Shown: in pieces, positions 39,900 through 60,236 of the stretch
How the letters are laid out: each line of letters opens with the position of its first letter
How positions within the stretch are numbered: the first letter of the stretch is position 1
Source of the DNA: Escherichia coli
Lineage (GTDB): Bacteria; Pseudomonadota; Gammaproteobacteria; Enterobacterales; Enterobacteriaceae
DNA length: 64,000 bases
NCBI RefSeq assembly: GCF_017348835.2
Contig: NZ_CP072315.1
Direction: 5' to 3' (one strand)
Position numbers and translations under genes: made by a program
Notes under the pieces: generated by a model
The model's database searches: none
Seen by the model: the letters and a program-made list of their open reading frames with translations, nothing else
Told to the model about the DNA's origin: nothing

Positions 39900-40207
39900 C
39901 AAACGCGAAGGCCGGTGCCCGTCTGACGTTGAACACCGACAGATTAAGTACCGGAACAACGTGATTGAATGCGATCATGGCAAACTGAAACGGATAATCG
40001 GCGCCACGCTGGGATTTAAATCCATGAAGACGGCTTACGCCACCATCAAAGGTATTGAGGTGATGCGTGCACTACGCAAAGGCCAGGCCTCAGCATTTTA
40101 TTATGGTGATCCCCTGGGCGAAATGCGCCTGGTAAGCAGAGTTTTTGAAATGTAAGGCCTTTGAATAAGACAAAAGGCTGCCTCATCGCTAACTTTGCAA
40201 CAGTGCC
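39900..40207 (+). mobile_element. Partial IS26 (3' terminal 308 bp)
   Basis: Encodes the C-terminal about 80 aa of Tnp26 with Gly at position 184 (KRIIGATLG); ends with TTTGCAACAGTGCC. Confidence 0.85.
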
Positions 40208-40416
40208 GGCTGAAGGCCGAGCAAGCCTGACAGGCCCGAAAAGCCCGGCACGGGCGTCGGCGGCGATGACGGCGGCGGCATTATCCAGGGTTGATGATGG
40301 AAGTGGAGGATATCGACAACCTCTCGCGCAACCAAGACATCGCGGTCGGACTGCAAGTGATCTTGAAGCCACGGGCCCGTCCCACCCCGACATGGACCTC
40401 GATGCCCGAACGGACG

Positions 40417-40917
40417 TTAGATTTCGAGTTCTAGGCGTTCTGCGATGAAGGTTGGATCCCAGCCGGGATTGAAAGTGTCGACGTGGGTGAATCCGAGCCG
40501 CTCGTATAGGCCACGCAGGTTCGGGTGGCAGTCGAGCCGCAGCTTGGCGCACCCCTGCGTTCGCGCGGCATGGCGGCAAGCCTCGATCAGCGCGGAGCTG
40601 ACACCCCGGCCCGCATGTGTCCGTCGCACCGCGAGCTTGTGCAGATATGCGGCCTCCCCCTTGAGGGCGTCGGGCCAGAACTCGGGATCCTCGGCCGACA
40701 AGGTGCAACAGCCGACGATGCCGTCGCTGCAACTCGCGACTAGGAGCTCGGATCTCAGGACGAAGGTCTCCGCGAATGTCCGGTCGATCCGCGCGACGTC
40801 CCAGGCGGGCGTTCCCTTGGCGGACATCCACGCCGCAGCGTCGTGCATCAGCCGCACAACCTCGTCGATATCACCCGAGCAGGCGACCCGAACGTTCGGA
40901 GGCTCCTCGCTGTCCAT
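40417..40917 (-). CDS. orf5: GNAT acetyltransferase (orf5 of the 3'-conserved segment)
   Basis: 166-aa ORF MDSEEPPNVRVACSGDIDEVVRLMHDAAAWM…. Confidence 0.85.
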   Translation of the reverse strand: MDSEEPPNVRVACSGDIDEVVRLMHDAAAWMSAKGTPAWDVARIDRTFAETFVLRSELLVASCSDGIVGCCTLSAEDPEFWPDALKGEAAYLHKLAVRRTHAGRGVSSALIEACRHAARTQGCAKLRLDCHPNLRGLYERLGFTHVDTFNPGWDPTFIAERLELEI

Positions 40918-41044
40918 TCGCTCCCCTGGCGCGGTATGAACCGCCGCCTCATAGTGCAGTTTGATCCTGACGAGCCCAGCATGTCTGCGCCCACCTTCGC
41001 GGAACCTGACCAGGGTCCGCTAGCGGGCGGCCGGAAGGTGAATG

Positions 41045-41884
41045 CTAGGCATGATCTAACCCTCGGTCTCTGGCGTCGCGACTGCGAAATTTCGCGAGGG
41101 TTTCCGAGAAGGTGATTGCGCTTCGCAGATCTCCAGGCGCGTGGGTGCGGACGTAGTCAGCGCCATTGCCGATCGCGTGAAGTTCCGCCGCAAGGCTCGC
41201 TGGACCCAGATCCTTTACAGGAAGGCCAACGGTGGCGCCCAAGAAGGATTTCCGCGACACCGAGACCAATAGCGGAAGCCCCAACGCCGACTTCAGCTTT
41301 TGAAGGTTCGACAGCACGTGCAGCGATGTTTCCGGTGCGGGGCTCAAGAAAAATCCCATCCCCGGATCGAGGATGAGCCGGTCGGCAGCGACCCCGCTCC
41401 GTCGCAAGGCGGAAACCCGCGCCTCGAAGAACCGCACAATCTCGTCGAGCGCGTCTTCGGGTCGAAGGTGACCGGTGCGGGTGGCGATGCCATCCCGCTG
41501 CGCTGAGTGCATAACCACCAGCCTGCAGTCCGCCTCAGCAATATCGGGATAGAGCGCAGGGTCAGGAAATCCTTGGATATCGTTCAGGTAGCCCACGCCG
41601 CGCTTGAGCGCATAGCGCTGGGTTTCCGGTTGGAAGCTGTCGATTGAAACACGGTGCATCTGATCGGACAGGGCGTCTAAGAGCGGCGCAATACGTCTGA
41701 TCTCATCGGCCGGCGATACAGGCCTCGCGTCCGGATGGCTGGCGGCCGGTCCGACATCCACGACGTCTGATCCGACTCGCAGCATTTCGATCGCCGCGGT
41801 GACAGCGCCGGCGGGGTCTAGCCGCCGGCTCTCATCGAAGAAGGAGTCCTCGGTGAGATTCAGAATGCCGAACACCGTCACCAT
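41045..41884 (-). CDS. sul1: Sulfonamide-resistant dihydropteroate synthase Sul1
   Basis: 279 aa from [23 protein letters not shown]. Confidence 0.95.
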
Positions 41885-42225
41885 GGCGTCGGCCTCCGCA
41901 GCGACTTCCACGATGGGGATCGGGCGAGCAAAAAGGCAGCAATTATGAGCCCCATACCTACAAAGCCCCACGCATCAAGCTTTTGCCCATGAAGCAACCA
42001 GGCAATGGCTGTAATTATGACGACGCCGAGTCCCGACCAGACTGCATAAGCAACACCGACAGGGATGGATTTCAGAACCAGAGAAAGAAAATAAAATGCG
42101 ATGCCATAACCGATTATGACAACGGCGGAAGGGGCAAGCTTAGTAAAGCCCTCGCTAGATTTTAATGCGGATGTTGCGATTACTTCGCCAACTATTGCGA
42201 TAACAAGAAAAAGCCAGCCTTTCAT
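41878..42225 (-). CDS. qacEdelta1: Truncated SMR efflux protein QacEdelta1
   Basis: 115 aa [27 protein letters not shown]…. Confidence 0.95.
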
Positions 42226-42335
42226 GATATATCTCCCAATTTGTGTAGGGCTTATTATGCACGCTTAAAAATAATAAAAGCAGACTTGACCTGATAGTTT
42301 GGCTGTGAGCAATTATGTGCTTAGTGCATCTAACG
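42223..42335 (-). repeat. About 110-bp direct repeat, copy A (start of 3'-conserved segment upstream of qacEdelta1)
   Basis: CCCAATTTGTGTAGGGCTTATTATGCACGCTTAAAAATAATAAAAGCAGACTTGACCTGATAGTTTGGCTGTGAGCAATTATGTGCTTAGTGCATCTAACG. Confidence 0.9.
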
Positions 42336-42341
42336 CCTGAA

Positions 42342-43187
42342 TTAAGCTGCGCCGCGAAGCGGCGTCGGCTTGAATGAACTGTTAGACATCATTGGCGTGG
42401 AGCCGAGCAGACTGGCGGCTTCGTGCTTCACAAAGTAAATGAACGCAGTCAACTGATCAGCGCGTGAGGCCAAGCAATCCATCCCTTGTCCAAGGTAAGC
42501 CTGCTGGGCTTCAAGCAGCACGGGCTGATGTTGGACGGGCAGGCGTTCCATTACCCAGTTGGCAGCTACATCCTTCGGCGCGATCTTGCCGGTTGCTGCG
42601 CTGTACCAAATGCGAGACAAAGTAAGCACTACATTCCGCTCGTCGCCTGCCCAATCCGGTTGTGAGTTCCATAGTTTCAAGGTGTCGGCCAGTGCTTTGA
42701 ATAGATCGCTTTCCGGGACTGAGTTGAAGAAATCTTCCGCGGCCGAACCTGCCAAGGCAAGGCTGTGTTGCCTTGCTTTAGTTAGCAGAATAGCCAGATC
42801 AACATCGGTTGTCGCGGGCTCGAAGATGCCCGCAAGAATGTCCTTGCGCTGCCACTCCCCGAATTGCAGTTCCCGTCTGGCTGGATAACGCCAAGGAACA
42901 ACATCGCCGTACACGACGATGGTAACTTCCAAGGCACGGAGAGCTTCACTTTGGCCGGGAGAAGCGGAAACTTCCAGGAAATCTACGAACAGAGCCTGCC
43001 GCACAGTCTCATCGAGCTGTGCAGTCACAGTAACCAGCAAATCAATATCACTGCATGGCTTCAGGCCACCGTCGAGTGCAGAGCCGTACAAATGCACGGC
43101 CAGCAACGTCGATCCCAGATGATGCTCGATGACGTTGAGTGCCTGTGATAGCTGTACCGAAATCTCGGCGGGCACTGCGTTGCTCAT
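42342..43187 (-). CDS. aadA16: Aminoglycoside (3'')(9) adenylyltransferase, aadA16-type
   Basis: 281 aa from MSNAVPAEISVQ; C-terminus …MSNSSFKPTPLRGAA reads into the attC region; allele assignment is from the array context and my recollection of the gene length. Confidence 0.8.
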   Translation of the reverse strand: MSNAVPAEISVQLSQALNVIEHHLGSTLLAVHLYGSALDGGLKPCSDIDLLVTVTAQLDETVRQALFVDFLEVSASPGQSEALRALEVTIVVYGDVVPWRYPARRELQFGEWQRKDILAGIFEPATTDVDLAILLTKARQHSLALAGSAAEDFFNSVPESDLFKALADTLKLWNSQPDWAGDERNVVLTLSRIWYSAATGKIAPKDVAANWVMERLPVQHQPVLLEAQQAYLGQGMDCLASRADQLTAFIYFVKHEAASLLGSTPMMSNSSFKPTPLRGAA

Positions 43188-43299
43188 GATGTCTAACTCC
43201 CAATTTGTGTAGGGCTTATTATGCACGCTTAAAAATAATAAAAGCAGACTTGACCTGATAGTTTGGCTGTGAGCAATTATGTGCTTAGTGCATCTAACG
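43186..43299 (-). repeat. About 110-bp direct repeat, copy B (5' region of the aadA16 cassette)
   Basis: Near-identical to copy A; supplies the MSNA start of aadA16. Confidence 0.9.
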
Positions 43300-43367
43300 C
43301 CGCTAAGCAGCGGCACATTTTGCGTTTTGAGCGCAGCGAAGCAAAATGTGTCCGATGGCTTGGATGG

Positions 43368-43841
43368 TTAACCCCTTTGCCAGATTTGATAGCGATAATT
43401 TATATTTGAATGAAATTCCTGCTCGAACACCACATTGAACTCTTTGGGGATTTCCGGAAAGAAAACATTGCCCTCTGGCTCGGAATCTATTGTCGAGATA
43501 TGTAGCGTGTCGGCATGGGCGATCAGACTCTTGTAGATCTCTCCACCACCAGAAACAACAACATGGTTCGTAAGAGTCTTTAGCTCCCTCATTGCTGCTT
43601 CTATAGATGGAAACACAACCACATCATCGTTAGTAGCTACCGATCCTGAGCGGCTGACAACTGCATACTTTCTATTTGGGAGAGCCCCCATTGCCTCAAA
43701 TGTTTTACGGCCGACTAAGAGCCATTGATTGTAAGTTATTGCTTTAAAAAGCAGCTGCTCACCTTTAGCGTTCCACGGGATATCCGAGCCGCAGCCAATA
43801 ACCCCATTTCTTGCTTTTGCAGCCATTAGTGATATTTTCAC
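43368..43841 (-). CDS. dfrA27: Trimethoprim-resistant dihydrofolate reductase, dfrA27-type
   Basis: 157 aa from a GTG start (V)[22 protein letters not shown]…; 474 bp. Confidence 0.8.
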
Positions 43842-43973
43842 GATACTCCTTTGGGTTAACGCCGCCATAAACGGCGACAGGGTGGCGCGCCTATTGCGCA
43901 TAAAATGGCGAAGCCATGCGCAACAGGCGCGGAATCTCTGGCGTCCGGTTTGATGGCTTTGTTATGCAAAGGA

Positions 43974-44426
43974 CTAGTCTTCAATGACGTGTAAACCACG
44001 GCGCTTTAAGTCCTCCAACGAATCCAACATTCCCCTTATTAATTCAACAGGATGCCCCTCCCAGTCTTCAACAACGCCAACAATTCTCAAGGGTTCGCAG
44101 GTTCTATAGGACTGTGTTGGATTACCGGGAAATCTTTTGTTCGTAAGATTCGGATCGTCTTCGAACGGTCCTGTTGGCTCAACTATGTATATGTAGCCGC
44201 GACCCTCGAGGCCAGACAGTGACATAGCAAGTTCAGCTCCCCAAACTGCTGGCTCCATCAAGGCTGAAAAGTAGATGTGCTTAAGAATACGACCGTCCTC
44301 GAAATGAGAGATGAACCCTGTGGTTAGCAAGTCACCAATCGCCAAATTGGCTTTGGTTCCATGATAGAACGGTCCTTGCACCTGCTTGTAATTATCATGA
44401 GAGATGGGAATCCAATCTTTTACCAT
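43974..44426 (-). CDS. arr-3: Rifampin ADP-ribosyltransferase Arr-3
   Basis: 150 aa MVKDWIPISHDNYKQVQGPFYHGTKANL…. Confidence 0.9.
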   Translation of the reverse strand: MVKDWIPISHDNYKQVQGPFYHGTKANLAIGDLLTTGFISHFEDGRILKHIYFSALMEPAVWGAELAMSLSGLEGRGYIYIVEPTGPFEDDPNLTNKRFPGNPTQSYRTCEPLRIVGVVEDWEGHPVELIRGMLDSLEDLKRRGLHVIED

Positions 44427-44522
44427 TTTAAGACCCTTAATTGTTGGGATTTGGCTGCATAACGTTTGACATGAGGGGCGGCCAAGGGCGCCAGCCCTTG
44501 GACGTCCCCCTCGATGGAAGGG

Positions 44523-45122
44523 TTAGGCATCACTGCGTGTTCGCTCGAATGCCTGGCGTGTTTGAACCATGTACACGGCTGGACCATATGGGGTGGTTAC
44601 GGTACCTTGCCTCTCAAACCCCGCTTTCTCGTAGCATCGGATCGCTCGCAAGTTGCTCGGCGACGGGTCCGTTTGGATCTTGGTGACCTCGGGATCATTG
44701 AACAGCAACTCAACCAGAGCTCGAACCAGCTTGGTTCCCAAGCCTTTGCCCAGTTGTGATGCATTCGCCAGTAACTGGTCTATTCCGCGTACTCCTGGAT
44801 CGGTTTCTTCTTCCCACCGTCCGTCCCCGCTTCCAAGAGCAACGTACGACTGGGCATACCCAATCGGCTCTCCATTCAGCATTGCAATGTATGGAGTGAC
44901 GGACTCTTGCGCTAAAACGCTTGGCAAGTACTGTTCCTGTACGTCAGCAAGTGTCGGGCGTGCTTCTTCTCCGCCCCACCACTCGACGATATGAGATCGA
45001 TTTAGCCACTCATAGAGCATCGCAAGGTCATGCTCAGTCATGAGGCGCAGTGTGACGGAATCGTTGCTGTTGGTCACGATGCTGTACTTTGTGATGCCTA
45101 ACTTTGTTTTTGCGTTGCTCAT
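44523..45122 (-). CDS. aac(6')-Ib-cr: Aminoglycoside/fluoroquinolone acetyltransferase AAC(6')-Ib-cr
   Basis: 199 aa from MSNAKTKLG; carries both -cr signature substitutions (Trp102Arg in GDGRWEEE and Asp179Tyr in TTPYGPAVY, numbering per the usual convention). Confidence 0.9.
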
Positions 45123-45233
45123 GATGTCTAACTCCCAATTTGTGTAGGGCTTATTATGCACGCTTAAAAATAATAAAAGCAGACTTGACCTGATAGTTTG
45201 GCTGTGAGCAATTATGTGCTTAGTGCATCTAAC
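45119..45233 (-). repeat. About 110-bp direct repeat, copy C (5' region of the aac(6')-Ib-cr cassette, next to attI1)
   Basis: Near-identical to copies A and B. Confidence 0.9.
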
Positions 45234-45295
45234 TTTGTTTTAGGGCGACTGCCCTGCTGCGTAACATCGTTGCTGCTCCATAACATCAAACATCG
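45230..45295 (-). other. attI1 recombination site
   Basis: 5'-conserved-segment end sequence …GATGTTATGGAGCAGCAACGATGTTACGCAGCAGGGCAGTCGCCCTAAAACAAAGTT read on the minus strand. Confidence 0.8.
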
Positions 45296-45368
45296 ACCCA
45301 CGGCGTAACGCGCTTGCTGCTTGGATGCCCGAGGCATAGACTGTACAAAAAAACAGTCATAACAAGCC

Positions 45369-46382
45369 ATGAAAACCGCCACTGCGCCGTTACCACCGCT
45401 GCGTTCGGTCAAGGTTCTGGACCAGTTGCGTGAGCGCATACGCTACTTGCATTACAGCTTACGAACCGAACAGGCTTATGTCCACTGGGTTCGTGCCTTC
45501 ATCCGTTTCCACGGTGTGCGTCACCCGGCAACCTTGGGCAGCAGCGAAGTCGAGGCATTTCTGTCCTGGCTGGCGAACGAGCGCAAGGTTTCGGTCTCCA
45601 CGCATCGTCAGGCATTGGCGGCCTTGCTGTTCTTCTACGGCAAGGTGCTGTGCACGGATCTGCCCTGGCTTCAGGAGATCGGAAGACCTCGGCCGTCGCG
45701 GCGCTTGCCGGTGGTGCTGACCCCGGATGAAGTGGTTCGCATCCTCGGTTTTCTGGAAGGCGAGCATCGTTTGTTCGCCCAGCTTCTGTATGGAACGGGC
45801 ATGCGGATCAGTGAGGGTTTGCAACTGCGGGTCAAGGATCTGGATTTCGATCACGGCACGATCATCGTGCGGGAGGGCAAGGGCTCCAAGGATCGGGCCT
45901 TGATGTTACCCGAGAGCTTGGCACCCAGCCTGCGCGAGCAGCTGTCGCGTGCACGGGCATGGTGGCTGAAGGACCAGGCCGAGGGCCGCAGCGGCGTTGC
46001 GCTTCCCGACGCCCTTGAGCGGAAGTATCCGCGCGCCGGGCATTCCTGGCCGTGGTTCTGGGTTTTTGCGCAGCACACGCATTCGACCGATCCACGGAGC
46101 GGTGTCGTGCGTCGCCATCACATGTATGACCAGACCTTTCAGCGCGCCTTCAAACGTGCCGTAGAACAAGCAGGCATCACGAAGCCCGCCACACCGCACA
46201 CCCTCCGCCACTCGTTTGCGACGGCCTTGCTCCGCAGCGGTTACGACATTCGAACCGTGCAGGATCTGCTCGGCCATTCCGACGTCTCTACGACGATGAT
46301 TTACACGCATGTGCTGAAAGTTGGCGGTGCCGGAGTGCGCTCACCGCTTGATGCGCTGCCGCCCCTCACTAGTGAGAGGTAG
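45369..46382 (+). CDS. intI1: Class 1 integron integrase IntI1
   Basis: 337 aa [40 protein letters not shown]…. Confidence 0.95.
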
Positions 46383-46559
46383 GGCAGCGCAAGTCAATCC
46401 TGGCGGATTCACTACCCCTGCGCGAAGGCCATCGGTGCCGCATCGAACGGCCGGTTGCGGAAAGTCCTCCCTGCGTCCGCTGATGGCCGGCAGCAGCCCG
46501 TCGTTGCCTGATGGATCCAACCCCTCCGCTGCTATAGTGCAGTCGGCTTCTGACGTTCA

Positions 46560-46584
46560 GTGCAGCCGTCTTCTGAAAACGACA
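46560..46584 (+). repeat. Class 1 integron 25-bp inverted repeat IRi
   Basis: GTGCAGCCGTCTTCTGAAAACGACA (reverse complement of TGTCGTTTTCAGAAGACGGCTGCAC). Confidence 0.9.
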
Positions 46585-46800
46585 AACAGCCAGAAAGGCT
46601 GTTACAGGCGATTTGATCTGCAACCTATTGGTTAAATTAATGTATCAAAAACGATGGTTTTTGTGACAGTCTTGAAAAGTCCTGACTTCTCCCGAAAAAT
46701 GACTCCCCTCATGTAACAAAACTCGTTACTGTATCAACATAACAATAACCCCATAACTAATTAGCGAGAAAAGAATGAAAATCGGCTATGCACGTAAATC

Positions 46801-47620
46801 GGCACTGTTGCAAATAGTCGGTGGTGATAAACTTATCATCCCCTTTTGCTGATGGAGCTGCACATGAACCCATTCAAAGGCCGGCATTTTCAGCGTGACA
46901 TCATTCTGTGGGCCGTACGCTGGTACTGCAAATACGGCATCAGTTACCGTGAGCTGCAGGAGATGCTGGCTGAACGCGGAGTGAATGTCGATCACTCCAC
47001 GATTTACCGCTGGGTTCAGCGTTATGCGCCTGAAATGGAAAAACGGCTGCGCTGGTACTGGCGTAACCCTTCCGATCTTTGCCCGTGGCACATGGATGAA
47101 ACCTACGTGAAGGTCAATGGCCGCTGGGCGTATCTGTACCGGGCCGTCGACAGCCGGGGCCGCACTGTCGATTTTTATCTCTCCTCCCGTCGTAACAGCA
47201 AAGCTGCATACCGGTTTCTGGGTAAAATCCTCAACAACGTGAAGAAGTGGCAGATCCCACGATTCATCAACACGGATAAAGCGCCCGCCTATGGTCGCGC
47301 GCTTGCTCTGCTCAAACGCGAAGGCCGGTGCCCGTCTGACGTTGAACACCGACAGATTAAGTACCGGAACAACGTGATTGAATGCGATCATGGCAAACTG
47401 AAACGGATAATCAACGCCACGCTGGGATTTAAATCCATGAAGACGGCTTACGCCACCATCAAAGGTATTGAGGTGATGCGTGCACTACGCAAAGGCCAGG
47501 CCTCAGCATTTTATTATGGTGATCCCCTGGGCGAAATGCGCCTGGTAAGCAGAGTTTTTGAAATGTAAGGCCTTTGAATAAGACAAAAGGCTGCCTCATC
47601 GCTAACTTTGCAACAGTGCC
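46801..47620 (+). mobile_element. IS26 copy 3 (820 bp)
   Basis: Both 14-bp ends; no target duplication. Confidence 0.95.
46864..47568 (+). CDS. tnp26: IS26 transposase Tnp26 (Asn at position 184)
   Basis: 234 aa; KRIINATLG. Confidence 0.9.
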   Translation: MNPFKGRHFQRDIILWAVRWYCKYGISYRELQEMLAERGVNVDHSTIYRWVQRYAPEMEKRLRWYWRNPSDLCPWHMDETYVKVNGRWAYLYRAVDSRGRTVDFYLSSRRNSKAAYRFLGKILNNVKKWQIPRFINTDKAPAYGRALALLKREGRCPSDVEHRQIKYRNNVIECDHGKLKRIINATLGFKSMKTAYATIKGIEVMRALRKGQASAFYYGDPLGEMRLVSRVFEM

Positions 47621-48213
47621 TTTGCACACATATGGAATCTGTAAATCATTTTGGACAAACCCGAAAAGAAATCCGTGAGTATGTAGATCTTAATAAGATT
47701 ACTGACCAGGTTAGTATCCCTGAAGATGGTGAAGTCGTTAATCTTTAATTATACATCCCCACAACTTTAATCAGGCAGTTACTCATTATGGTTTTACTGG
47801 TGACTGCCGGCCCTCTTAGCATTCGAAATTTTTTATGTCACCCGATTTAGTTCCGCGCACTTTTTGAGATTTCCGGGGTTTCAGCCATCAGCCGGAAATT
47901 ACAGAGGGCAATGGCTGAAGAAGGTTTTTCCCCGCGATAGCGCAAGTTTCCACAAAAGGGCATCGAATTTTTTGAATGCCCTTTTCTTACCCCATCCCCT
48001 CATAACTTTATGTTTTTATTAACTTCGCGTTTTCGACGCCAGCGTTGGCCAGCTGCTGCCGGCGACGTGGCCACACAACCGATTATTCAAGTTCGCTGAA
48101 TGAGTTTTTACGGGCTGTATGCAACACAAATGCTACGATAATGCCCCCGGACAATACCGGCTCCCAATAATCCGGGGTGGGTTTGTTCTGCCGGTTTAGT
48201 CCGGGGAGCAAGG

Positions 48214-48501
48214 TCACTTTGAGGGGAGATCTTCAGCAAGTAATTTTCCATGCGCGATAAGCCACCTGCGGCGTTTTGCCATCCACTGCTGAAATTCAGA
48301 GGTGCTCTCAACCTTCAGCACATCCTTCCGCTTCCAGGCCATTATGGGGCCAGCTTTTTGTGGTTGGTCGAGAAAGTCAGATATGGCTTTATCAGTCCAG
48401 TACCGCGCTTTCAATCCACTTTTACTTATCCAGTTATCGTGCCATTCAGCGCTTGCTTTAGCGCGTGAATCGGCGGCGTTGTAATAAAGCCTTACCGTCA
48501 T
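48214..48501 (-). CDS. Hypothetical protein
   Basis: 95-aa ORF downstream of the helicase fragment. Confidence 0.35.
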   Translation of the reverse strand: MTVRLYYNAADSRAKASAEWHDNWISKSGLKARYWTDKAISDFLDQPQKAGPIMAWKRKDVLKVESTSEFQQWMAKRRRWLIAHGKLLAEDLPSK

Positions 48502-48510
48502 TACTCGCTC

Positions 48511-48965
48511 CTATAATCTCAAGGCTCTGTCATCGTTATTTTTTTCATGGCCTTTATCTTTAGGCCGGGCATTACCTTTATCCTGCGTCGGCTCGGCTTT
48601 GTCTCGGCCTTTTTCGCGGGTATCATGCTGCTGCTCTTTGGCATAGCGTTTGAGTTGTTCCAGCTCAAGCGCGGCGGTTTTGAACCCTTCCCGGCTGGCC
48701 GCTTTATCCAGCTTCTTCTCATCGTCGGTGTAAATGACGGCTTCGTGTTTAGCGCGGGTGACAGCCACGTAATAAACATCTTTGGCCGTTGTGAGTGATC
48801 GGGTATCCATATTGATAAAAACCTTGTCGCAGGTCAGCCCCTGAGCACTATGAACGGTCGAAGCGTAAGCCAGCCCTAAGTACATAGGTTTGTTGGCATC
48901 AATTTTTACCAGCCGCCCTTTCTCGTTCTCCAGCAGTACCTCACCACTCTGGACGCTTTTTACCT
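48511..48965 (-). pseudogene. 3' fragment of a RecD/TraI-type helicase (relaxase-like) gene, interrupted by Tn1721
   Basis: C-terminal helicase motifs (YASTVHSAQGLTCDKVFI, YVAVTRAKHEAVIYTDD); the reading frame continues up to the inverted repeat at 48972 with no start. Confidence 0.6.
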
Positions 48966-48971
48966 TAAAAC

Positions 48972-49009
48972 GGGGGAACCGCAGAATTCGGAAAAAATCG
49001 TACGCTAAG
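48972..49009 (+). repeat. Tn1721-type 38-bp terminal inverted repeat (IRL-like)
   Basis: GGGGGAACCGCAGAATTCGGAAAAAATCGTACGCTAAG. Confidence 0.85.
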
Positions 49010-49160
49010 CTAACGGTGTTCTCGTGACAGCTCTTTGACTAGGCTTTCTAAGGCCATTCTGATAGCCCTGACTTCCTGAAAAGCCATGGCTAAAATTTGT
49101 GCGGCTAAAAGGGATAACCGATGGTAAAGTAAGTTATCCCTGTCGAGATACTGAAAAGCG

Positions 49161-50738
49161 TTATCCTCGTTTTTCCCAAAACTGTTTTGCCAGTTCGCTC
49201 AGAGCGCTAGTTAACTGAGCGACAGATTTCGCACTTTGCAAATTATTCTGCCCGGTCTGTACATTGGTATCAGCAGCATCGCGTATATTGATAATACTGC
49301 GGTTTATGTCTTCACTTACTGCTCCCTGCTGCTCGACCGCAGTCGCTATTTGCGCGTTCATGTCGGTAATTTCGTTAACGCGTTGGCCAATTCCATCAAG
49401 AGCTGTAGCTGCTTCCTCTGCGTGAGCTACACTCGTGTGCGCTTGCCGACTACTTTGCTCCATGACTGTAACAGCGGATTGCGCTCGCTCTTGTAGAGCG
49501 CTGATCATGCTTTGAATATCCGTTGTCGATTGCTGTGTGCGAGCAGCAAGACTGCGAACCTCATCGGCGACAACAGCAAAACCACGCCCCTGCTCACCAG
49601 CACGCGCGGCCTCAATTGCTGCGTTGAGTGCCAACAAATTCGTTTGCTCGGCGATCCCTCGTATAACGTCAAGAACTTTTGATATCTCGTTACTTTGACC
49701 TTCAAGCTCATGAATAACCTGAGTGGCTTGCCTAATTTCACCTTCAAGGGCAGTGATTGACTGGCTTGTGTGGGCTACCAGACGCTGGCCAGATGCCGTC
49801 TCAGTGTCTGCTCTTCCGGCCGCATCTGCAGCATGCTGTGCATTGCTCGCAACCTCTTGAATGCTTGCCACCATTTGGTTTACTGCCGTTGCTATTTGAT
49901 CTGTCTCTGCCTGCTGCTCAACTGTAAGTACATTGCTTGACTCAATATCCTTTAGTAGGCCTCGGGTGTGTTCGCTAAGCCGATTTGATGCATCACCTAT
50001 GCGACCTACTATGGCGCCTGTTTCAGCTTGCATCATTCGTAAAGCAAACTCTATTTGGCCAAACTCATCGGTGCGCCCAGTGTAGAGGGATTGACTTAAT
50101 GGGTTATTGGAAATATTCCTGGCTCTTTCAACCAGTCTTCCAAGAGGAGAGAGAATAGCCAAAACACTAACAGAGCTTAAGCTTCCTGACATTAAAGTGG
50201 CTAACAATAAGCTGCTTATTGATGTATCAGTAAGCATGCCGGCAGCCATTGCGCTTGATATAATACTACCCCATATGAGCAAGAGTATTTTCACGGAAAA
50301 GCTAGCAGCCAATTTCGGCCTCGCGGCCTTCCCGCTTCTCAATTGAGCATATAATTTTTCCGCAGCCAAAACCTGCTCAGGTTCAGGCTTGGTCCTTACA
50401 GACTGGTATTCAACAATCGAACCATTCTTAGCTATTGGCGTTACATAAGCACTTACCCAATAGTGGTCGCCATTTTTACAGCGATTTTTTACTAGCCCCA
50501 TCCATGAGCGGCCAGATTTTAATGTACTCCACATATGCTCAAATGCAGCAGGCGGCATATCTGGGTGTCTTACGATGTTGTGAGGCTGGCCTAATAGTTC
50601 TTCCTCAGTGAAACCACTGATTTTAATGAAGTCAGGATTAACGTACGTGATATGGCTTTGAGGGGAGGTAGTCGAAAGAATATTGGCATCTTTTGGGAGT
50701 TCTAAGTTTCGACCCGTCACTGGTAAATTCTGGCGCAT
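49161..50738 (-). CDS. Methyl-accepting chemotaxis-like protein (Tn1721 orfI-type) with N-terminal PAS-like region
   Basis: 525 aa from [20 protein letters not shown] signalling-domain character; the 730-aa track ORF is a fusion with antisense IS26 sequence. Confidence 0.8.
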
Positions 50739-50762
50739 AAGAACCTCAAGGGTTGGCTGTTT

Positions 50763-51582
50763 GGCACTGTTGCAAATAGTCGGTGGTGATAAACTTATCA
50801 TCCCCTTTTGCTGATGGAGCTGCACATGAACCCATTCAAAGGCCGGCATTTTCAGCGTGACATCATTCTGTGGGCCGTACGCTGGTACTGCAAATACGGC
50901 ATCAGTTACCGTGAGCTGCAGGAGATGCTGGCTGAACGCGGAGTGAATGTCGATCACTCCACGATTTACCGCTGGGTTCAGCGTTATGCGCCTGAAATGG
51001 AAAAACGGCTGCGCTGGTACTGGCGTAACCCTTCCGATCTTTGCCCGTGGCACATGGATGAAACCTACGTGAAGGTCAATGGCCGCTGGGCGTATCTGTA
51101 CCGGGCCGTCGACAGCCGGGGCCGCACTGTCGATTTTTATCTCTCCTCCCGTCGTAACAGCAAAGCTGCATACCGGTTTCTGGGTAAAATCCTCAACAAC
51201 GTGAAGAAGTGGCAGATCCCGCGATTCATCAACACGGATAAAGCGCCCGCCTATGGTCGCGCGCTTGCTCTGCTCAAACGCGAAGGCCGGTGCCCGTCTG
51301 ACGTTGAACACCGACAGATTAAGTACCGGAACAACGTGATTGAATGCGATCATGGCAAACTGAAACGGATAATCGGCGCCACGCTGGGATTTAAATCCAT
51401 GAAGACGGCTTACGCCACCATCAAAGGTATTGAGGTGATGCGTGCACTACGCAAAGGCCAGGCCTCAGCATTTTATTATGGTGATCCCCTGGGCGAAATG
51501 CGCCTGGTAAGCAGAGTTTTTGAAATGTAAGGCCTTTGAATAAGACAAAAGGCTGCCTCATCGCTAACTTTGCAACAGTGCC
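50763..51582 (+). mobile_element. IS26 copy 4 (820 bp)
   Basis: Both 14-bp ends; lies 24 bp upstream of the mcp start codon. Confidence 0.95.
50826..51530 (+). CDS. tnp26: IS26 transposase Tnp26 (Gly at position 184)
   Basis: 234 aa; KRIIGATLG. Confidence 0.9.
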
Positions 51583-51778
51583 GCGCGACGAGCAGCAGCA
51601 CCAGGAGCAGAAGCACGTCGAGAAAAAGCAACAGCAGATCGAGCAGCGCCCACGGCGGGCCGCTCGCATCGGATAAGTCGAAAAATCCGGCTAAAGTGGC
51701 CGAGCTGCACATCAGGCCGCGCGGTTTTCCTCCCTGATCGCCGGCGCGGTTTCTTCCTCCCTGAACCGCATGCAGACT

Positions 51779-51812
51779 TGCCGCCTCGGACACCCCGAGG
51801 CGGTTTTTTTTC
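51779..51812 (+). terminator. Rho-independent terminator
   Basis: Hairpin CCGCCTCGG-ACACC-CCGAGGCGG followed by eight T residues. Confidence 0.7.
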
Positions 51813-51823
51813 GCCTCGCTCGA

Positions 51824-52037
51824 GCATCGCCGCATCCGACGATGCCGAGACGACCAGGCCGCGCACGTCGAGCTGCAGCATCGCCATTGCCGACGATGGC
51901 ACCAGGTCGCCGGCGGTGGCCACCGACCTCGAGCTCGCATCGCCACATCCGACGATGCGCGCCGGCGTCGACCATCGCCAGGTCTGACGATGGCGGCCGC
52001 CCTGCCCTGGATCTCGCATCGCCATTTCTGGCGATGA
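51824..52037 (+). repeat. Five iterated about 22-bp partly palindromic sites (GCATCG-N10-CGATGC type)
   Basis: Copies at 51824, 51877, 51937, 51972 and 52016, upstream of the serine recombinase gene. Confidence 0.7.
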
Positions 52038-52161
52038 GATCCACGGAGCGGCCATTTAGACCCGCCAATAACGACCCGGCCAAGATAAATCGCATGACGG
52101 CCTTTTTGGCCGGGGGTAGCATGACCGGACACTTTGCGTATGCCCAAAGGAGCCCGCAAGT

Positions 52162-52899
52162 ATGCGCAGGACGAAGCCAGTAGCCGCGCCGATGGTGGCG
52201 CGGGTCTATCTGCGCGTCAGCACCGACGCGCAGGACTTGGAACGCCAAGAGGCGATCACTACGGCCGCGAAGGCCGCCGGCTACTACGTCGCCGGCATCT
52301 ACCGTGAGAAGGCATCCGGCGCACGCGCCGACCGGCCTGAGCTGCTGCGCATGATCGGCGACCTACAGCCCGGCGAGGTGGTCATTGCCGAGAAGATCGA
52401 CCGCATCAGCCGCCTACCTTTGCCCGAGGCCGAGCGCCTGGTGGCCTCGATACAGGCCAAAGGCGCAAGCCTGGCCGTCCCTGGCGTGGTCGATCTATCC
52501 GACCTGGCGGCCGAGGCCCAGGGCGTCGCCAAGATCGTGCTGGAAGCCGTGCAGATCATGCTTTTTCGCCTGGCCTTGCAGATGGCCCGCGACGACTACG
52601 AGGACAGGCGCGAACGCCAGCGCCAAGGCATTGAGTTGGCCCGCCAGGCCGGGCGGTACAAGGGCCGCCGTGCTGATCCGAAGCGCCGCGCCCAAGTTGT
52701 CGCGCTGCGCAAGTCCGGCTACAGCATCAACAAGACCGCCGAGCTGGCCGGGTACAGTGCGGCCCAGGTGAAACGGATATGGGCCGAGGTCAGCCAGGCC
52801 GAAGCGAAGCAGCACGGCGCGTTCGTGGAGGACGCATTGACGGAAGCCGATGCCCTGGCCGCTGTCGGCCAGGATGAGCGCCAGGAGGAAAGGGCATGA
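52162..52899 (+). CDS. Serine recombinase (resolvase/invertase family)
   Basis: 245-aa ORF with N-terminal catalytic-domain character (YLRVSTDAQDLERQ) and a C-terminal HTH; alternative start near 52192. Confidence 0.7.
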   Translation: MRRTKPVAAPMVARVYLRVSTDAQDLERQEAITTAAKAAGYYVAGIYREKASGARADRPELLRMIGDLQPGEVVIAEKIDRISRLPLPEAERLVASIQAKGASLAVPGVVDLSDLAAEAQGVAKIVLEAVQIMLFRLALQMARDDYEDRRERQRQGIELARQAGRYKGRRADPKRRAQVVALRKSGYSINKTAELAGYSAAQVKRIWAEVSQAEAKQHGAFVEDALTEADALAAVGQDERQEERA

Positions 52900-53120
52900 A
52901 GAAGCCGAACCAAGACGACGAGCCGTTTTTCATCACCGAGGAGATTGCGGCCGAAATGATCGCCGGCGGCTATGAGTTCGAGCTGCCGCCCATTCCTTGC
53001 ACCATCCGCCTACGCGACGTGCTGGAGCGCATGACCGATGCTGAGCTAGCATTGCAGCCGGGCGAGATCGCCGACCAGGAGCGTGAACGCTGCCGGCGCA
53101 AGCCGTGTTCAACCTCATGA
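52896..53120 (+). CDS. Hypothetical small protein
   Basis: 74-aa ORF overlapping the recombinase stop (ATGA). Confidence 0.3.
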   Translation: MKKPNQDDEPFFITEEIAAEMIAGGYEFELPPIPCTIRLRDVLERMTDAELALQPGEIADQERERCRRKPCSTS

Positions 53121-53213
53121 TCTGGTCATGGTATTTTTCATGGCACTGAGCCTGATAGTTCTTGCAAATTGTTGTCACTAAAGGGTTTTGTGTGCTTGTT
53201 TACAATCGAGTGG

Positions 53214-54850
53214 GAGTGACGGGCACTGGCTGGCAATGTCTAGCAACGGCAGGCATTTCGGCTGAGGGTAAAAGAACTTTCCGCTAAGCGATAGACTGTA
53301 TGTAAACACAGTATTGCAAGGACGCGGAACATGCCTCATGTGGCGGCCAGGACGGCCAGCCGGGATCGGGATACTGGTCGTTACCAGAGCCACCGACCCG
53401 AGCAAACCCTTCTCTATCAGATCGTTGACGAGTATTACCCGGCATTCGCTGCGCTTATGGCAGAGCAGGGAAAGGAATTGCCGGGCTATGTGCAACGGGA
53501 ATTTGAAGAATTTCTCCAATGCGGGCGGCTGGAGCATGGCTTTCTACGGGTTCGCTGCGAGTCTTGCCACGCCGAGCACCTGGTCGCTTTCAGCTGTAAG
53601 CGTCGCGGTTTCTGCCCGAGCTGTGGGGCGCGGCGGATGGCCGAAAGTGCCGCCTTGCTGGTTGATGAAGTACTGCCTGAACAACCCATGCGTCAGTGGG
53701 TGTTGAGCTTCCCGTTTCAGCTGCGTTTCCTGTTTGCCAGCCGGCCCGAGATCATGGGGTGGGTGCTGGGCATCGTTTACCGCGTCATTGCCACGCACCT
53801 GGTCAAGAAAGCGGGCCATACCCACCAAGTGGCCAAGACGGGCGCGGTCACCCTGATCCAGCGTTTTGGATCGGCGCTCAATCTGAATGTTCACTTCCAC
53901 ATGCTGTTTCTCGACGGTGTGTATGTCGAGCAATCCCACGGCTCAGCGCGTTTCCGCTGGGTCAAGGCGCCGACCAGCCCAGAGCTCACCCAGCTGACGC
54001 ACACCATCGCCCACCGGGTGGGTCGCTATCTGGAACGGCAAGGCCTGCTGGAACGGGATGTCGAAAACAGCTATCTGGCCTCGGATGCGGTGGATGACGA
54101 CCCGATGACACCCCTGCTGGGGCACTCGATCACTTACCGTATCGCTGTCGGTTCACAGGCGGGGCGAAAGGTGTTCACTTTGCAAACTCTGCCGACCAGT
54201 GGTGATCCGTTCGGTGACGGGATTGGCAAGGTAGCCGGGTCCAGCCTGCACGCCGGCGTGGCGGCCAGGGCCGATGAACGCAAGAAGCTCGAACGGCTGT
54301 GCCGGTACATCAGCCGCCCGGCGGTATCCGAGAAGCGGCTGTCGTTAACACGAGGCGGCAACGTGCGCTACCAGCTCAAGACGCCGTACCGGGACGGCAC
54401 CACGCACGTCATTTTCGAACCATTGGATTTCATTGCAAGGCTGGCCGCCCTGGTACCGAAGCCCAGAGTCAACCTAACCCGCTTCCACGGGGTGTTCGCA
54501 CCCAACAGTCGGCACCGGGCGTTGGTCACGCCGGCAAAACGGGGCAGGGGCAACAAGGTCAGGGTGGCTGATGAACCGGCAACACCAGCACAACGGCGAG
54601 CGTCGATGACATGGGCGCAACGGCTCAAGCGTGTTTTCAATATCGACATCGAGACCTGCAGCGGCTGCGGCGGCGCCATGAAAGTCATCGCCTGCATTGA
54701 AGACCCTATAGTGATCAAGCAGATCCTTGATCACCTGAAGCACAAAGCCGAAACCAGCGGGACCAGGGCGTTACCCGAAAGCCGGGCGCCACCGGCTGAG
54801 CTGCTCCTGGGTCTGTTTGACTGACGAGCCTGAAGGCCAACGATACCAAT
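53214..54850 (+). mobile_element. ISCR2 (IS91-like rolling-circle element); 3' boundary approximate
   Basis: Contains the ISCR2-type transposase gene; its first 305 bp are duplicated at 57498-57802. Confidence 0.75.
53331..54824 (+). CDS. ISCR2 transposase (IS91 family)
   Basis: 497-aa ORF MPHVAARTASRDRDTGRYQSHRPEQTLLYQ…. Confidence 0.85.
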   Translation: MPHVAARTASRDRDTGRYQSHRPEQTLLYQIVDEYYPAFAALMAEQGKELPGYVQREFEEFLQCGRLEHGFLRVRCESCHAEHLVAFSCKRRGFCPSCGARRMAESAALLVDEVLPEQPMRQWVLSFPFQLRFLFASRPEIMGWVLGIVYRVIATHLVKKAGHTHQVAKTGAVTLIQRFGSALNLNVHFHMLFLDGVYVEQSHGSARFRWVKAPTSPELTQLTHTIAHRVGRYLERQGLLERDVENSYLASDAVDDDPMTPLLGHSITYRIAVGSQAGRKVFTLQTLPTSGDPFGDGIGKVAGSSLHAGVAARADERKKLERLCRYISRPAVSEKRLSLTRGGNVRYQLKTPYRDGTTHVIFEPLDFIARLAALVPKPRVNLTRFHGVFAPNSRHRALVTPAKRGRGNKVRVADEPATPAQRRASMTWAQRLKRVFNIDIETCSGCGGAMKVIACIEDPIVIKQILDHLKHKAETSGTRALPESRAPPAELLLGLFD

Positions 54851-54854
54851 CAAA

Positions 54855-55739
54855 ATGCTGCGTTCACAGCGCCGCGGCAGGGATCCGCCGTGCTGGTTGT
54901 CGGAAAAGGAGCCGCTAGTGGGAAAGAGGAGGGTAAATTTTCAGCGTTGCTGGCTCCCCGTCAGCCGGATTGGGTTGCATCGCAGGGGTGTCGAAAGAGT
55001 CAACTGCGGTCCAAAGCTGTTGGACTTGGGTGAAAAGGGCGTTTATTCTTCCTATACGTGCCGCGTTCCAGGCGGCGACTATGAGGGCTATGTCGATGCC
55101 CATGTGCGCCGGCTGGAGGCGCTACGCCGGGCCGGTATCGTCGAGCGGATCGACGCCGACCAATGGCGCATCCCCAATGATCTGGTCAGCCGTGCCGCCG
55201 CCCATGACGCCGGCCGAGACAGTCAGGCCAGCGTTCGCGTCCTTTCCCCGGTCGATCTGAACAAACAGATCGGATCGGACGGCGCGACCTGGCTGGACCG
55301 GCGGCTGATCCACGGCGAGACGGCCGACCTTGCGCCAACCGGCTTCGGGCAACAAGTCCGCGAAGCCATGGACCAGCGCCGCGAGCACCATATCGAACAG
55401 GGCGACGCCACCCGCAGCCGGGACAGCCGCGTCTTCTACCGGCGCAACCTTCTCGCCATCCTGCGGGAGCGCGAGGTAGCCGGCGTCGGATCGGATATGG
55501 CTTTGAGTAAGGGCCTGCCGTTCCGCGCCGCCACGGACGGCGAGAGCGTCAGCGGCAAGTTTACCGGAACCGTGCATCTATCGAGCGGCAAGTTCGCCGT
55601 GGTCGAGAAATCCCATGAGTTCACCCTTGTCCCGTGGCGGCCGATCATCGACCGCCAACTCGGCCGCGAGGTTATGGGCATCGTGCAGGGCGGGTCGGTG
55701 TCGTGGCAGTTAGGGCGGCAGAGGGGGCTGGAACGCTGA
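54855..55739 (+). pseudogene. Truncated VirD2-like relaxase fragment of the floR module
   Basis: 294-aa ORF between ISCR2 and floR; assignment from the familiar ISCR2-virD2-fragment-floR-lysR context. Confidence 0.55.
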
Positions 55740-55955
55740 GTGCGCCCATGCCGCATTGCGAAGCAAAAGATAATCGGATAAAATGTAGCAATTCATATTC
55801 GTAAGCGTGGAGTAATCAGATGGGAAATTCCAAGTCAGCAGACAAGTAAGCCGCAACAACCAGTATTGTTGTTGCGGCGCTCTGTAAGGCTAGTCTCATC
55901 TGATTGCTGACGAGCAGACGTCGCCCGGTATTCCTTAATCGAGGGTTGATTCGTC

Positions 55956-57170
55956 ATGACCACCACACGCCCCGCGTGGGCCTATACGCTGCCGGCAGCA
56001 CTGCTGCTGATGGCTCCTTTCGACATCCTCGCTTCACTGGCGATGGATATTTATCTCCCTGTCGTTCCAGCGATGCCCGGCATCCTGAACACGACGCCCG
56101 CTATGATCCAACTCACGTTGAGCCTCTATATGGTGATGCTCGGCGTGGGCCAGGTGATTTTTGGTCCGCTCTCAGACAGAATCGGGCGACGGCCAATTCT
56201 ACTTGCGGGCGCAACGGCTTTCGTCATTGCGTCTCTGGGAGCAGCTTGGTCTTCAACTGCACCGGCCTTTGTCGCTTTCCGTCTACTTCAAGCAGTGGGC
56301 GCGTCGGCCATGCTGGTGGCGACGTTCGCGACGGTTCGCGACGTTTATGCCAACCGTCCTGAGGGTGTCGTCATCTACGGCCTTTTCAGTTCGATGCTGG
56401 CGTTCGTGCCTGCGCTCGGCCCTATCGCCGGAACATTGATCGGCGAGTTCTTGGGATGGCAGGCGATATTCATTACTTTGGCTATACTGGCGATGCTCGC
56501 ACTCCTAAATGCGGGTTTCAGGTGGCACGAAACCCGCCCTCTGGATCAAGTCAAGACGCGCCGATCTGTCTTGCCGATCTTCGCGAGTCCGGCTTTTTGG
56601 GTTTACACTGTCGGCTTTAGCGCCGGTATGGGCACCTACTTCGTCTTCTTCTCGACGGCTCCCCGTGTGCTCATAGGCCAAGCGGAATATTCCGAGATCG
56701 GATTCAGCTTTGCCTTCGCCACTGTCGCGCTTGTAATGATCGTGACAACCCGTTTCGCGAAGTCCTTTGTCGCCAGATGGGGCATCGCAGGATGCGTGGC
56801 GCGTGGGATGGCGTTGCTTGTTTGCGGAGCGGTCCTGTTGGGGATCGGCGAACTTTACGGCTCGCCGTCATTCCTCACCTTCATCCTACCGATGTGGGTT
56901 GTCGCGGTCGGTATTGTCTTCACGGTGTCCGTTACCGCGAACGGCGCTTTGGCAGAGTTCGACGACATCGCGGGATCAGCGGTCGCGTTCTACTTCTGCG
57001 TTCAAAGCCTGATAGTCAGCATTGTCGGGACATTGGCGGTGGCACTTTTAAACGGTGACACAGCGTGGCCCGTGATCTGTTACGCCACGGCGATGGCGGT
57101 ACTGGTTTCGTTGGGGCTGGTGCTCCTTCGGCTCCGTGGGGCTGCCACCGAGAAGTCGCCAGTCGTCTAA
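55956..57170 (+). CDS. floR: Florfenicol/chloramphenicol MFS exporter FloR
   Basis: 404 aa MTTTRPAWAYTLPAALLLMAPFDILASLAMDIYLPVV…. Confidence 0.95.
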   Translation: MTTTRPAWAYTLPAALLLMAPFDILASLAMDIYLPVVPAMPGILNTTPAMIQLTLSLYMVMLGVGQVIFGPLSDRIGRRPILLAGATAFVIASLGAAWSSTAPAFVAFRLLQAVGASAMLVATFATVRDVYANRPEGVVIYGLFSSMLAFVPALGPIAGTLIGEFLGWQAIFITLAILAMLALLNAGFRWHETRPLDQVKTRRSVLPIFASPAFWVYTVGFSAGMGTYFVFFSTAPRVLIGQAEYSEIGFSFAFATVALVMIVTTRFAKSFVARWGIAGCVARGMALLVCGAVLLGIGELYGSPSFLTFILPMWVVAVGIVFTVSVTANGALAEFDDIAGSAVAFYFCVQSLIVSIVGTLAVALLNGDTAWPVICYATAMAVLVSLGLVLLRLRGAATEKSPVV

Positions 57171-57197
57171 CCGACGACTGGTAGCAGGCCCGCTCCG

Positions 57198-57503
57198 ATG
57201 CGGCGCACTAACCATCGAAACCTCGTGAATGTCGGTATCCTGTCTGGCAGGATACCGCTCATTTCCCTTGTTCAGTTCATCGCCGTCGCCGAGCATCTGA
57301 ATTTTCGGCATGCGGCCAAGGCACTTGGTATCAGCCAGTCGAGCGTCAGCGCGCGTGTGAAAGCGCTGGAGGATAACCTTGGTGTCCTGCTATTTGAGCG
57401 CCATGCGCGGGGCGTTCGGCTAACAGACGCAGGCAGGCACTTCATGGAGCGTGTCACGGCGGGTGTCGATCAACTCGATCACGCAGTGAAGACCGCGGAG
57501 TGA
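57198..57503 (+). pseudogene. lysR: Truncated LysR-family regulator
   Basis: 101 aa with LysR HTH only; cut off by the ISCR2 5' fragment. Confidence 0.75.
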
Positions 57504-57802
57504 CGGGCACTGGCTGGCAATGTCTAGCAACGGCAGGCATTTCGGCTGAGGGTAAAAGAACTTTCCGCTAAGCGATAGACTGTATGTAAACACAGTATTG
57601 CAAGGACGCGGAACATGCCTCATGTGGCGGCCAGGACGGCCAGCCGGGATCGGGATACTGGTCGTTACCAGAGCCACCGACCCGAGCAAACCCTTCTCTA
57701 TCAGATCGTTGACGAGTATTACCCGGCATTCGCTGCGCTTATGGCAGAGCAGGGAAAGGAATTGCCGGGCTATGTGCAACGGGAATTTGAAGAATTTCTC
57801 CA
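57498..57802 (+). mobile_element. ISCR2 5' fragment (305-bp direct repeat of 53214-53518)
   Basis: Identical by eye to the start of the complete ISCR2, including the first 63 codons of its transposase. Confidence 0.85.
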
Positions 57803-58969
57803 AAGCCCGCGACGCAGCGCCGGCAGGCAGAGCAAGTAGAGGGCAGCGCCTGCAATCCATGCCCACCCGTTCCACGTTGTTATAGAAGCCGCATAGATCG
57901 CCGTGAAGAGGAGGGGTCCGACGATCGAGGTCAGGCTGGTGAGCGCCGCCAGTGAGCCTTGCAGCTGCCCCTGACGTTCCTCATCCACCTGCCTGGACAA
58001 CATTGCTTGCAGCGCCGGCATTCCGATGCCACCCGAAGCAAGCAGGACCATGATCGGGAACGCCATCCATCCCCGTGTCGCGAAGGCAAGCAGGATGTAG
58101 CCTGTGCCGTCGGCAATCATTCCGAGCATGAGTGCCCGCCTTTCGCCGAGCCGGGCGGCTACAGGGCCGGTGATCATTGCCTGGGCGAGTGAATGCAGAA
58201 TGCCAAATGCGGCAAGCGAAATGCCGATCGTGGTCGCGTCCCAGTGAAAGCGATCCTCGCCGAAAATGACCCAAAGCGCGGCCGGCACCTGTCCGACAAG
58301 TTGCATGATGAAGAAGACCGCCATCAGGGCGGCGACGACGGTCATGCCCCGGGCCCACCGGAACGAAGCGAGCGGGTTGAGAGCCTCCCGGCGTAACGGC
58401 CGGCGTTCGCCTTTGTGCGACTCCGGCAAAAGGAAACAGCCCGTCAGGAAATTGAGGCCGTTCAAGGCTGCCGCGGCGAAGAACGGAGCGTGGGGGGAGA
58501 AACCGCCCATCAGCCCACCGAGCACAGGTCCCGCGACCATCCCGAACCCGAAACAGGCGCTCATGAAGCCGAAGTGCCGCGCGCGCTCATCGCCATCAGT
58601 GATATCGGCAATATAAGCGCCGGCTACCGCCCCAGTCGCCCCGGTGATGCCGGCCACGATCCGCCCGATATAGAGAACCCAAAGGAAAGGCGTCGTCGCC
58701 ATGATGGCGTAGTCGACAGCAGCGCCGGCCAGCGAGACGAGCAAGACCGGCCGCCGCCCGAAACGATCCGACAGCGCGCCCAGCACAGGTGCGCAGGCAA
58801 ATTGCATCAACGCATACAGCGCCAGCAGAATGCCATAGTGGGCGGTGACGTCGTTCGAGTGAACCAGATCGCGCAGGAGGCCCGGCAGCACCGGCATAAT
58901 CAGGCCGATGCCGACAGCGTCGAGCGCGACAGTGCTCAGAATTACGATCAGGGGTCTGTTGGGTTTCAC
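57770..58969 (-). CDS. tetA(A): Tetracycline efflux protein TetA(A), 3' end replaced by ISCR2-derived sequence
   Basis: 399 aa from a GTG start (V)KPNRPLIVILSTVALDAVG…; the last 33 nt lie inside the ISCR2 fragment, giving a …RRGLWRNSSNSRCT C-terminus. Confidence 0.9.
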   Translation of the reverse strand: MKPNRPLIVILSTVALDAVGIGLIMPVLPGLLRDLVHSNDVTAHYGILLALYALMQFACAPVLGALSDRFGRRPVLLVSLAGAAVDYAIMATTPFLWVLYIGRIVAGITGATGAVAGAYIADITDGDERARHFGFMSACFGFGMVAGPVLGGLMGGFSPHAPFFAAAALNGLNFLTGCFLLPESHKGERRPLRREALNPLASFRWARGMTVVAALMAVFFIMQLVGQVPAALWVIFGEDRFHWDATTIGISLAAFGILHSLAQAMITGPVAARLGERRALMLGMIADGTGYILLAFATRGWMAFPIMVLLASGGIGMPALQAMLSRQVDEERQGQLQGSLAALTSLTSIVGPLLFTAIYAASITTWNGWAWIAGAALYLLCLPALRRGLWRNSSNSRCT

Positions 58970-59017
58970 GTCTGGCCTCCGGACCAGCCTCCGCTGGTCC
59001 GATTGAACGCGCGGATT

Positions 59018-59066
59018 CTTTATCACTGATAAGTTGGTGGACATATTATGTTTATCAGTGATAAAG
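59018..59066. promoter_or_regulatory. tet operator region (two palindromic operators) between tetA and tetR
   Basis: TTTATCACTGATAA and TTTATCAGTGATAAA palindromes in the divergent intergenic region. Confidence 0.8.
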
Positions 59067-59074
59067 TGTCAAGC

Positions 59075-60198: not shown

Positions 60199-60236
60199 GG
60201 GGTCGTTTGCGGGAAGGGGCGGAATCCTACGCTAAG
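60199..60236 (+). repeat. Tn3-family 38-bp inverted repeat, Tn5393-like, downstream of strB
   Basis: GGGGTCGTTTGCGGGAAGGGGCGGAATCCTACGCTAAG, 68 bp from the strB stop. Confidence 0.7.

Follow-up and report, generated by a model that had tools for sequence, protein, structure and literature searches.

A Tn1721 remnant truncated by IS26 retains an intact, probably silent chemoreceptor gene

The gene order mcp, tnpR, tnpA of Tn1722 is credited in PMC5052281 to Allmeier et al. (1992), and a Salmonella IncHI2 plasmid has been described that carries ΔTn1721 remnants of 1,789 bp alongside IS26-v1, floR, tet(A) and ISVsa3 (PMC9019673). The ends of IS26 carry an outward-facing TTGCAA, and where a -10 element follows at a distance of about 17 nt, a hybrid promoter results (reviewed in PMC7986276); a validated case, TTGCAA-17-CATAAT upstream of aac(6')-Ib-cr, was mapped by 5'RACE (PMC11156391). 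For the E. coli chemoreceptor gene aer, the experimentally defined sigma-28 promoter is TAAAGATA-N11-GCCGACAT, which agrees with the consensus TAAAGTTT-N11-GCCGATAA at 12 of 16 positions (PMC2859248). Here we describe a Tn1721-type mcp gene that lies directly beside IS26 in a stretch of 64,000 nucleotides from E. coli (contig NZ_CP072315.1), hereafter called the window. We consider it likely that this segment is a promoterless leftover of Tn1721, produced by an IS26-mediated deletion or recombination, in which mcp is most probably carried as silent cargo.

The ΔTn1721 segment occupies 48972..50762 (1,791 bp) and comprises an end repeat, an intact mcp gene and 24 bp of leader. The 38-bp terminal inverted repeat of the mcp-proximal end of Tn1721/Tn1722, GGGGGAACCGCAGAATTCGGAAAAAATCGTACGCTAAG (48972..49009), is located downstream of mcp and is identical to positions 7000-7037 of locus L003 of CP098972.1, an E. 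coli plasmid with a complete Tn1722-type element of 5,640 bp that has 38-bp repeats and a 5-bp target duplication, AACTG. The partner repeat of the intact element (12602-12639) differs from the first at three positions, and the two enclose mcp, reading leftward, a 309-bp intergenic res region, the divergently oriented tnpR, and tnpA. When 48973..50762 was compared with 7001..8790 of L003, there were 0 mismatches over 1,790 bp, and identity ended exactly at the IS26 tip; at the other end, BLAST identity begins at 48972 in many plasmids. These results confirm the Tn1721-type label given to the locus in an earlier sequence-only reading, as well as its statement that the res-tnpR-tnpA genes normally found upstream of mcp have been replaced by IS26. 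We assigned the segment to Tn1721/Tn1722 by three features, namely its end repeat, the gene order given in the literature and the intact relative in CP098972.1. Within the intact element (7189..12606 of L003), the G+C content is 47.5% for mcp and 46.6% for the mcp-tnpR intergenic region, compared with 65.6-65.9% for tnpR and tnpA. From this gap, mcp appears to be a foreign passenger of Tn1722 that came from a source with lower G+C than the transposition module.

The repeat is directly preceded in the window by a C-terminal fragment of a relaxase/helicase gene (48511..48971, minus strand), identified by weak matches to the C-termini of TraA, TraI and RecD. Its reading frame continues without a stop as far as the Tn1721 repeat, and this marks the gene as the presumptive original target of Tn1721 insertion. 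A 95-aa ORF without a family match (48214..48501, minus strand) adjoins the relaxase fragment, and both accompany the remnant in several IncHI2 plasmids. No RNA family was identified by Rfam within 46500-52500.

The mcp gene (orfI; 49161..50738, minus strand) has a coding sequence of 1578 nt that specifies 525 aa and ends in its only stop codon. The earlier description of an intact 525-aa chemoreceptor gene with a PAS-type N-terminus is therefore correct, and the frameshift that had been named as a possible objection is absent. Pfam assigns PAS_3 to residues 32-115, HAMP to residues 195-240, and MCPsignal to residues 326-487 (E=6.9e-44) of the product, which is annotated as WP_001323889.1 in identical plasmids. 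Alignment with Aer of E. coli K-12 gave 33% identity over 500 residues (E=2e-76), with strong conservation of the PAS core (GQPHNxVRHPDMPxAAF...KNGDHYWV), and a hydrophobic peak with the form of a hairpin was found at about residues 143-200. Taken together, the Pfam domains, the hydrophobicity and the alignment show an Aer-like architecture, that is, an N-terminal cytoplasmic PAS domain, a membrane hairpin, HAMP, and an MCP signalling domain. If it is expressed, the mcp product would be expected to act as an Aer-like energy or aerotaxis transducer that signals to CheA/CheW. In a literature search, we found no paper that links Tn1721 to aerotaxis.

The same alignment (49164..50738, minus strand) contains two clean 7-residue gaps in Aer, both located in the C-terminal signalling arm at about residues 400-460 of the mcp product. 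The best NCBIfam similarity of the protein is to CtpM of P. aeruginosa, with a score far under the cut-off of that model. The two gaps, combined with this closest similarity to CtpM, suggest that the signalling hairpin is longer, and hence of a different heptad class, than in the receptors of E. coli and other enterobacteria. A product of this kind may be incompatible with enterobacterial receptor arrays, and the predicted longer hairpin would further lower the chance of its working in enterobacterial hosts.

The neighbor of mcp on its 5' side is an 820-bp IS26 bounded by perfect terminal repeats of 14 bp (50763..51582, plus strand), the transposase of which belongs to the IS6 family (NCBIfam E=2.3e-82) and is annotated as WP_001067855.1 in identical plasmids. 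The tnp26 coding sequence (50826..51530, plus strand; 234 aa) is divergent from mcp. Between the left IS26 repeat (50763..50776) and the start codon, 24 bp of native leader survive (50739..50762, minus strand; sense AAACAGCCAACCCTTGAGGTTCTT followed by ATG), which match CP098972.1 up to the breakpoint and keep the ribosome-binding site GAGG (50747..50744, minus strand). Followed along the mcp strand, the junction is TTTGCAACAGTGCC, then AAACAGCCAACCCTTGAGGTTCTT, then ATG, with exactly 24 bp from the IS26 tip to ATG. The distance of 24 bp given in the sequence-only reading is thus accurate, and its interval 49161-50762 corresponds to the coding sequence plus this leader. That reading also described IS26 as inserted at this site; the position holds, but a simple insertion does not, since the 8-bp target duplication expected on the flanks of 50763..51582 is absent (GGCTGTTT vs GCGCGACG). 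On its far side, IS26 is followed by a recombinase-ISVsa3(ISCR2)-floR module. The junction, where a target duplication is lacking and the two flanks differ in origin, is therefore the product of an IS26-mediated deletion or recombination rather than of a simple insertion.

A second IS26, oriented in the same direction, is located at 46801..47620 (plus strand) and encodes the G184N variant known as IS26-v1 (WP_001067858.1). The two copies differ at positions 459, 613 and 614, so that the protein reads ...KRIINATL... in the copy at 46801 and ...KRIIGATL... in the other; higher activity of the G184N transposase has been reported (Pong et al., 2019, as cited in PMC9019673). Between these directly oriented copies lie 3.1 kb (47621..50762) that contain the remnant and no resistance gene, which makes this segment a potential translocatable unit with cryptic cargo only. 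Further IS26 terminal repeats are found upstream of the integron, within about 36739..40207 (at 36739, 37544, 39080, 39886 and 40194); the spacing at 36739 and 39080 is unlike that of clean 820-bp copies and points to partial, inverted or variant copies of the IS26/IS6 family.

The sequence-only reading had proposed that the IS26 end might supply a -35 element and thereby create a hybrid promoter for mcp. Such a promoter, as is known for aac(6')-Ib-cr, aphA7 and blaSHV-2a, would draw its -10 element from the 24 retained bases. The -35 half of this proposal has a basis in the sequence: the outward TTGCAA is present on the mcp strand of the left repeat (50775..50770), and the formation of such promoters is a general property of IS26 ends (PMC7986276; PMC11156391). 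However, the hexamers at spacers of 14-20 nt are CAACCC, AACCCT, ACCCTT, CCCTTG (17 nt), CCTTGA, CTTGAG and TTGAGG; agreement with TATAAT is limited to 0-2 of 6 positions, and in no case is the critical A at position 2 combined with T at position 6. A consensus promoter scan of 48800-51700, which covers the junction, likewise returned no site on the mcp strand. Any -10 element at these spacers would end 5-11 nt before ATG, so that transcription would start at or past GAGG and yield an essentially leaderless transcript lacking the ribosome-binding site; at the proper spacing, the -10 element would overlap the bases immediately ahead of GAGG. Moreover, in other plasmids the distance between IS26 and the mcp ATG takes many other values (among them about 58 bp and about 260 bp), and some copies of IS26 lie within mcp, indicating that no particular geometry is favored. 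Under these conditions a hybrid promoter for mcp is not supported, and we regard it as very improbable. The alternative outcome named in the same reading, silencing of mcp, fits the sequence, since the native control region has been lost, and is the favored one.

Two candidate promoters precede mcp in the intact element, and the IS26 junction removes both. The more distant is a sigma-70-like CTGACA-18-TAGATT located 128-157 bp upstream of ATG, beyond the IS26 breakpoint. The nearer, located 35-61 bp upstream (8801..8827 of L003, minus strand) and deleted in the window, is the sigma-28-like TCAAGAAA-N11-GCCGAAAA, which matches the consensus at 11 of 16 positions, with just 4 of 8 in the -35 octamer, and is comparable in quality to the E. 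coli aer promoter. Matches to sigma-28 with at most two mismatches are expected by chance at a mean of 1.25 in 15.8 kb, and it is position alone that makes this site notable: by simple proportion, the chance that a sigma-28-like match falls on the correct strand in the 150 nt or so preceding a chemoreceptor gene is approximately 0.006. It is plausible that this site is the native promoter of mcp, and its presence suggests that the Tn1722 chemoreceptor may be wired into the flagellar regulon of the host through FliA; we found no paper that reports such wiring for the Tn1722 mcp. In the window itself, the sigma-28 consensus gave five matches with at most two mismatches (4.9 expected), none of them near the junction or relevant. 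Since the native promoter candidates are lost and the IS26 end rebuilds none, the mcp gene in the window is most likely silent or transcribed at background level.

Low-level expression could also arise by read-through, if weak antisense promoters within IS26, or transcripts from the ISCR2 side, crossed the left repeat and gave small amounts of a functional Aer-like receptor. A relaxed scan of the mcp strand inside IS26 found five weak sigma-70-like matches (8 of 12), the nearest of which, TTTGCA-18-CAGAAT, ends 127 bp upstream of ATG. No terminator-like hairpin was found on the mcp strand between these antisense matches and mcp in the scan of 48800-51700, the GAGG site is intact, and the antisense frame of IS26 is open into mcp. 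However, matches of 8 of 12 are of the quality expected in random sequence, and a stricter scan gives fewer sites than its shuffles. In the review PMC7986276, the sole promoter described inside IS26 is that of the transposase at the left end, the effects of IS26 on neighboring genes being credited to hybrid promoters, and no upstream gene is oriented toward mcp. Read-through of this kind is therefore judged unlikely, although it retains a modest chance.

The open antisense frame gives rise to a 730-aa ORF (49161..51353, minus strand), the first 205 codons of which are the IS26 antisense frame, in frame with mcp and stop-free through the left repeat. As a real gene fusion, this ORF was rejected as mechanical; the antisense frame recurs in the second IS26 (46786..47391). 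Antisense transcription of IS26 would nevertheless yield an N-terminally extended mcp receptor. Should this copy be transcribed after all, whether into a leaderless message driven by the IS26 -35 element or antisense out of IS26, possibly with the 730-aa product, and should it feed into host chemotaxis, a resistance plasmid would alter the energy-taxis behavior of its host. We give this prospect hardly any credence.

The wider context of the remnant was assessed by comparison with deposited plasmids. The 24 kb at 40001..64000 match the IncHI2 plasmid p2016062-242 of Salmonella enterica (NZ_CP090540.1) with 100% identity from end to end. In that plasmid, IS26 is followed by a class 1 integron (sul1, qacEΔ1, aadA16, dfrA27, arr-3, aac(6')-Ib-cr and intI1), the G184N copy of IS26, the hypothetical gene with the relaxase fragment, and ΔTn1721 with mcp. 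The order continues with IS26, the recombinase gene, ISVsa3, floR, tet(A)-tetR(A), strAB, sul2 and repC; the tet(A) and tetR(A) genes belong to a separate fragment, about 6.6 kb from the remnant. IncHI2-type plasmids from Enterobacter, Raoultella, Salmonella and E. coli also carry the remnant with an identical junction. At least nine PLSDB records share the exact breakpoint at -24, which is one of many, as do 2 of 5,426 complete E. coli genomes. The segment is thus a Tn1721 leftover of an already-described kind in a known plasmid type.

Matches to the remnant were found in 3,330 plasmids, 3,258 of which are at least 99% identical to it. In a sample taken at even spacing from the ranked list of these plasmids, about one fifth have the complete segment, while in the rest mcp is cut at many points (query ends at 1706, 1696, 1608, 1600, 1547, 1491, 1390, 1262, 1234, 1179 and 964), and some keep just the 5' part of mcp or just the repeat. 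The presence of mcp in thousands of plasmids, its intact frame with full domain architecture, and a PAS domain very similar to that of Aer could be taken to mean that the gene is kept for a benefit to plasmid or host, for example as an energy-taxis input, and that the IS26 junction is tolerated or even adaptive. However, the near-identity of almost all copies is in keeping with recent spread and bears no sign of purifying selection. Truncation at arbitrary points is seen in most plasmid copies, and the copy in the window has lost its promoter. In addition, the two 7-residue gaps against Aer and the similarity to CtpM suggest a receptor length class unlike that of the hosts' own receptors. The scatter of truncations and of IS26 distances is that of neutral decay in a passenger gene and argues against selection on mcp. 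Retention for a benefit consequently appears extremely unlikely.

The obtained results are best accommodated by the following sequence of events. Tn1721 would first have transposed into the relaxase/helicase gene. Later IS26 activity, either an adjacent deletion or recombination between IS26 copies, would have removed res, tnpR, tnpA and the tet module beyond position -24, and unrelated ISCR2-floR DNA would have been joined to the other side of IS26. The mcp frame presumably survives because these events are recent and the breakpoint fell outside the gene by chance, rather than out of any need for the gene. The gene would thus have kept its ribosome-binding site and lost its native promoter candidates, and with none rebuilt by the IS26 end it would be left silent or expressed at background level. 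As a structural marker, the remnant can help to follow the reshaping of IncHI2 resistance islands by IS26, and a single lineage of these islands is tagged by its exact -24 breakpoint. Whether the Tn1721 chemoreceptor is expressed or useful is a matter that concerns Tn1721 generally, for which the intact element is better suited than this promoterless copy.

When set against the known receptor, the mcp product shares with E. coli Aer the N-terminal PAS domain with its highly conserved core, the hydrophobic hairpin, HAMP and the MCP signalling domain, but overall identity is 33% and the signalling arm of the mcp product has two extra heptads. E. coli aer is sigma-28 dependent (PMC2859248), and a sigma-28-like motif is also located upstream of mcp in native Tn1722. 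Relative to the IS26 hybrid promoters described for aac(6')-Ib-cr in In37, aphA7, blaSHV-2a and blaKPC, the locus has the same arrangement, with an IS26 end beside the 5' side of the gene and an outward TTGCAA. The difference lies in the -10 position, where the validated promoter has CATAAT at 17 nt and the mcp junction has CCCTTG, with no usable -10 element at 16-18 nt.

Compared with Tn1721/Tn1722, the remnant has the same 38-bp end repeat and an mcp gene identical at every base to that of the intact element. As in the intact element, where mcp is divergent from tnpR, the gene reads toward the repeat. In contrast to the complete transposons, only 1,791 bp are left, and the site lacks res, tnpR and tnpA as well as the tet module and the second repeat. 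The ΔTn1721 remnants reported from resistance regions rich in IS26 on IncHI2 and IncF plasmids (PMC9019673; PMC5052281; PMC5241659) are of the same kind as the one described here and differ from it in nothing substantive.
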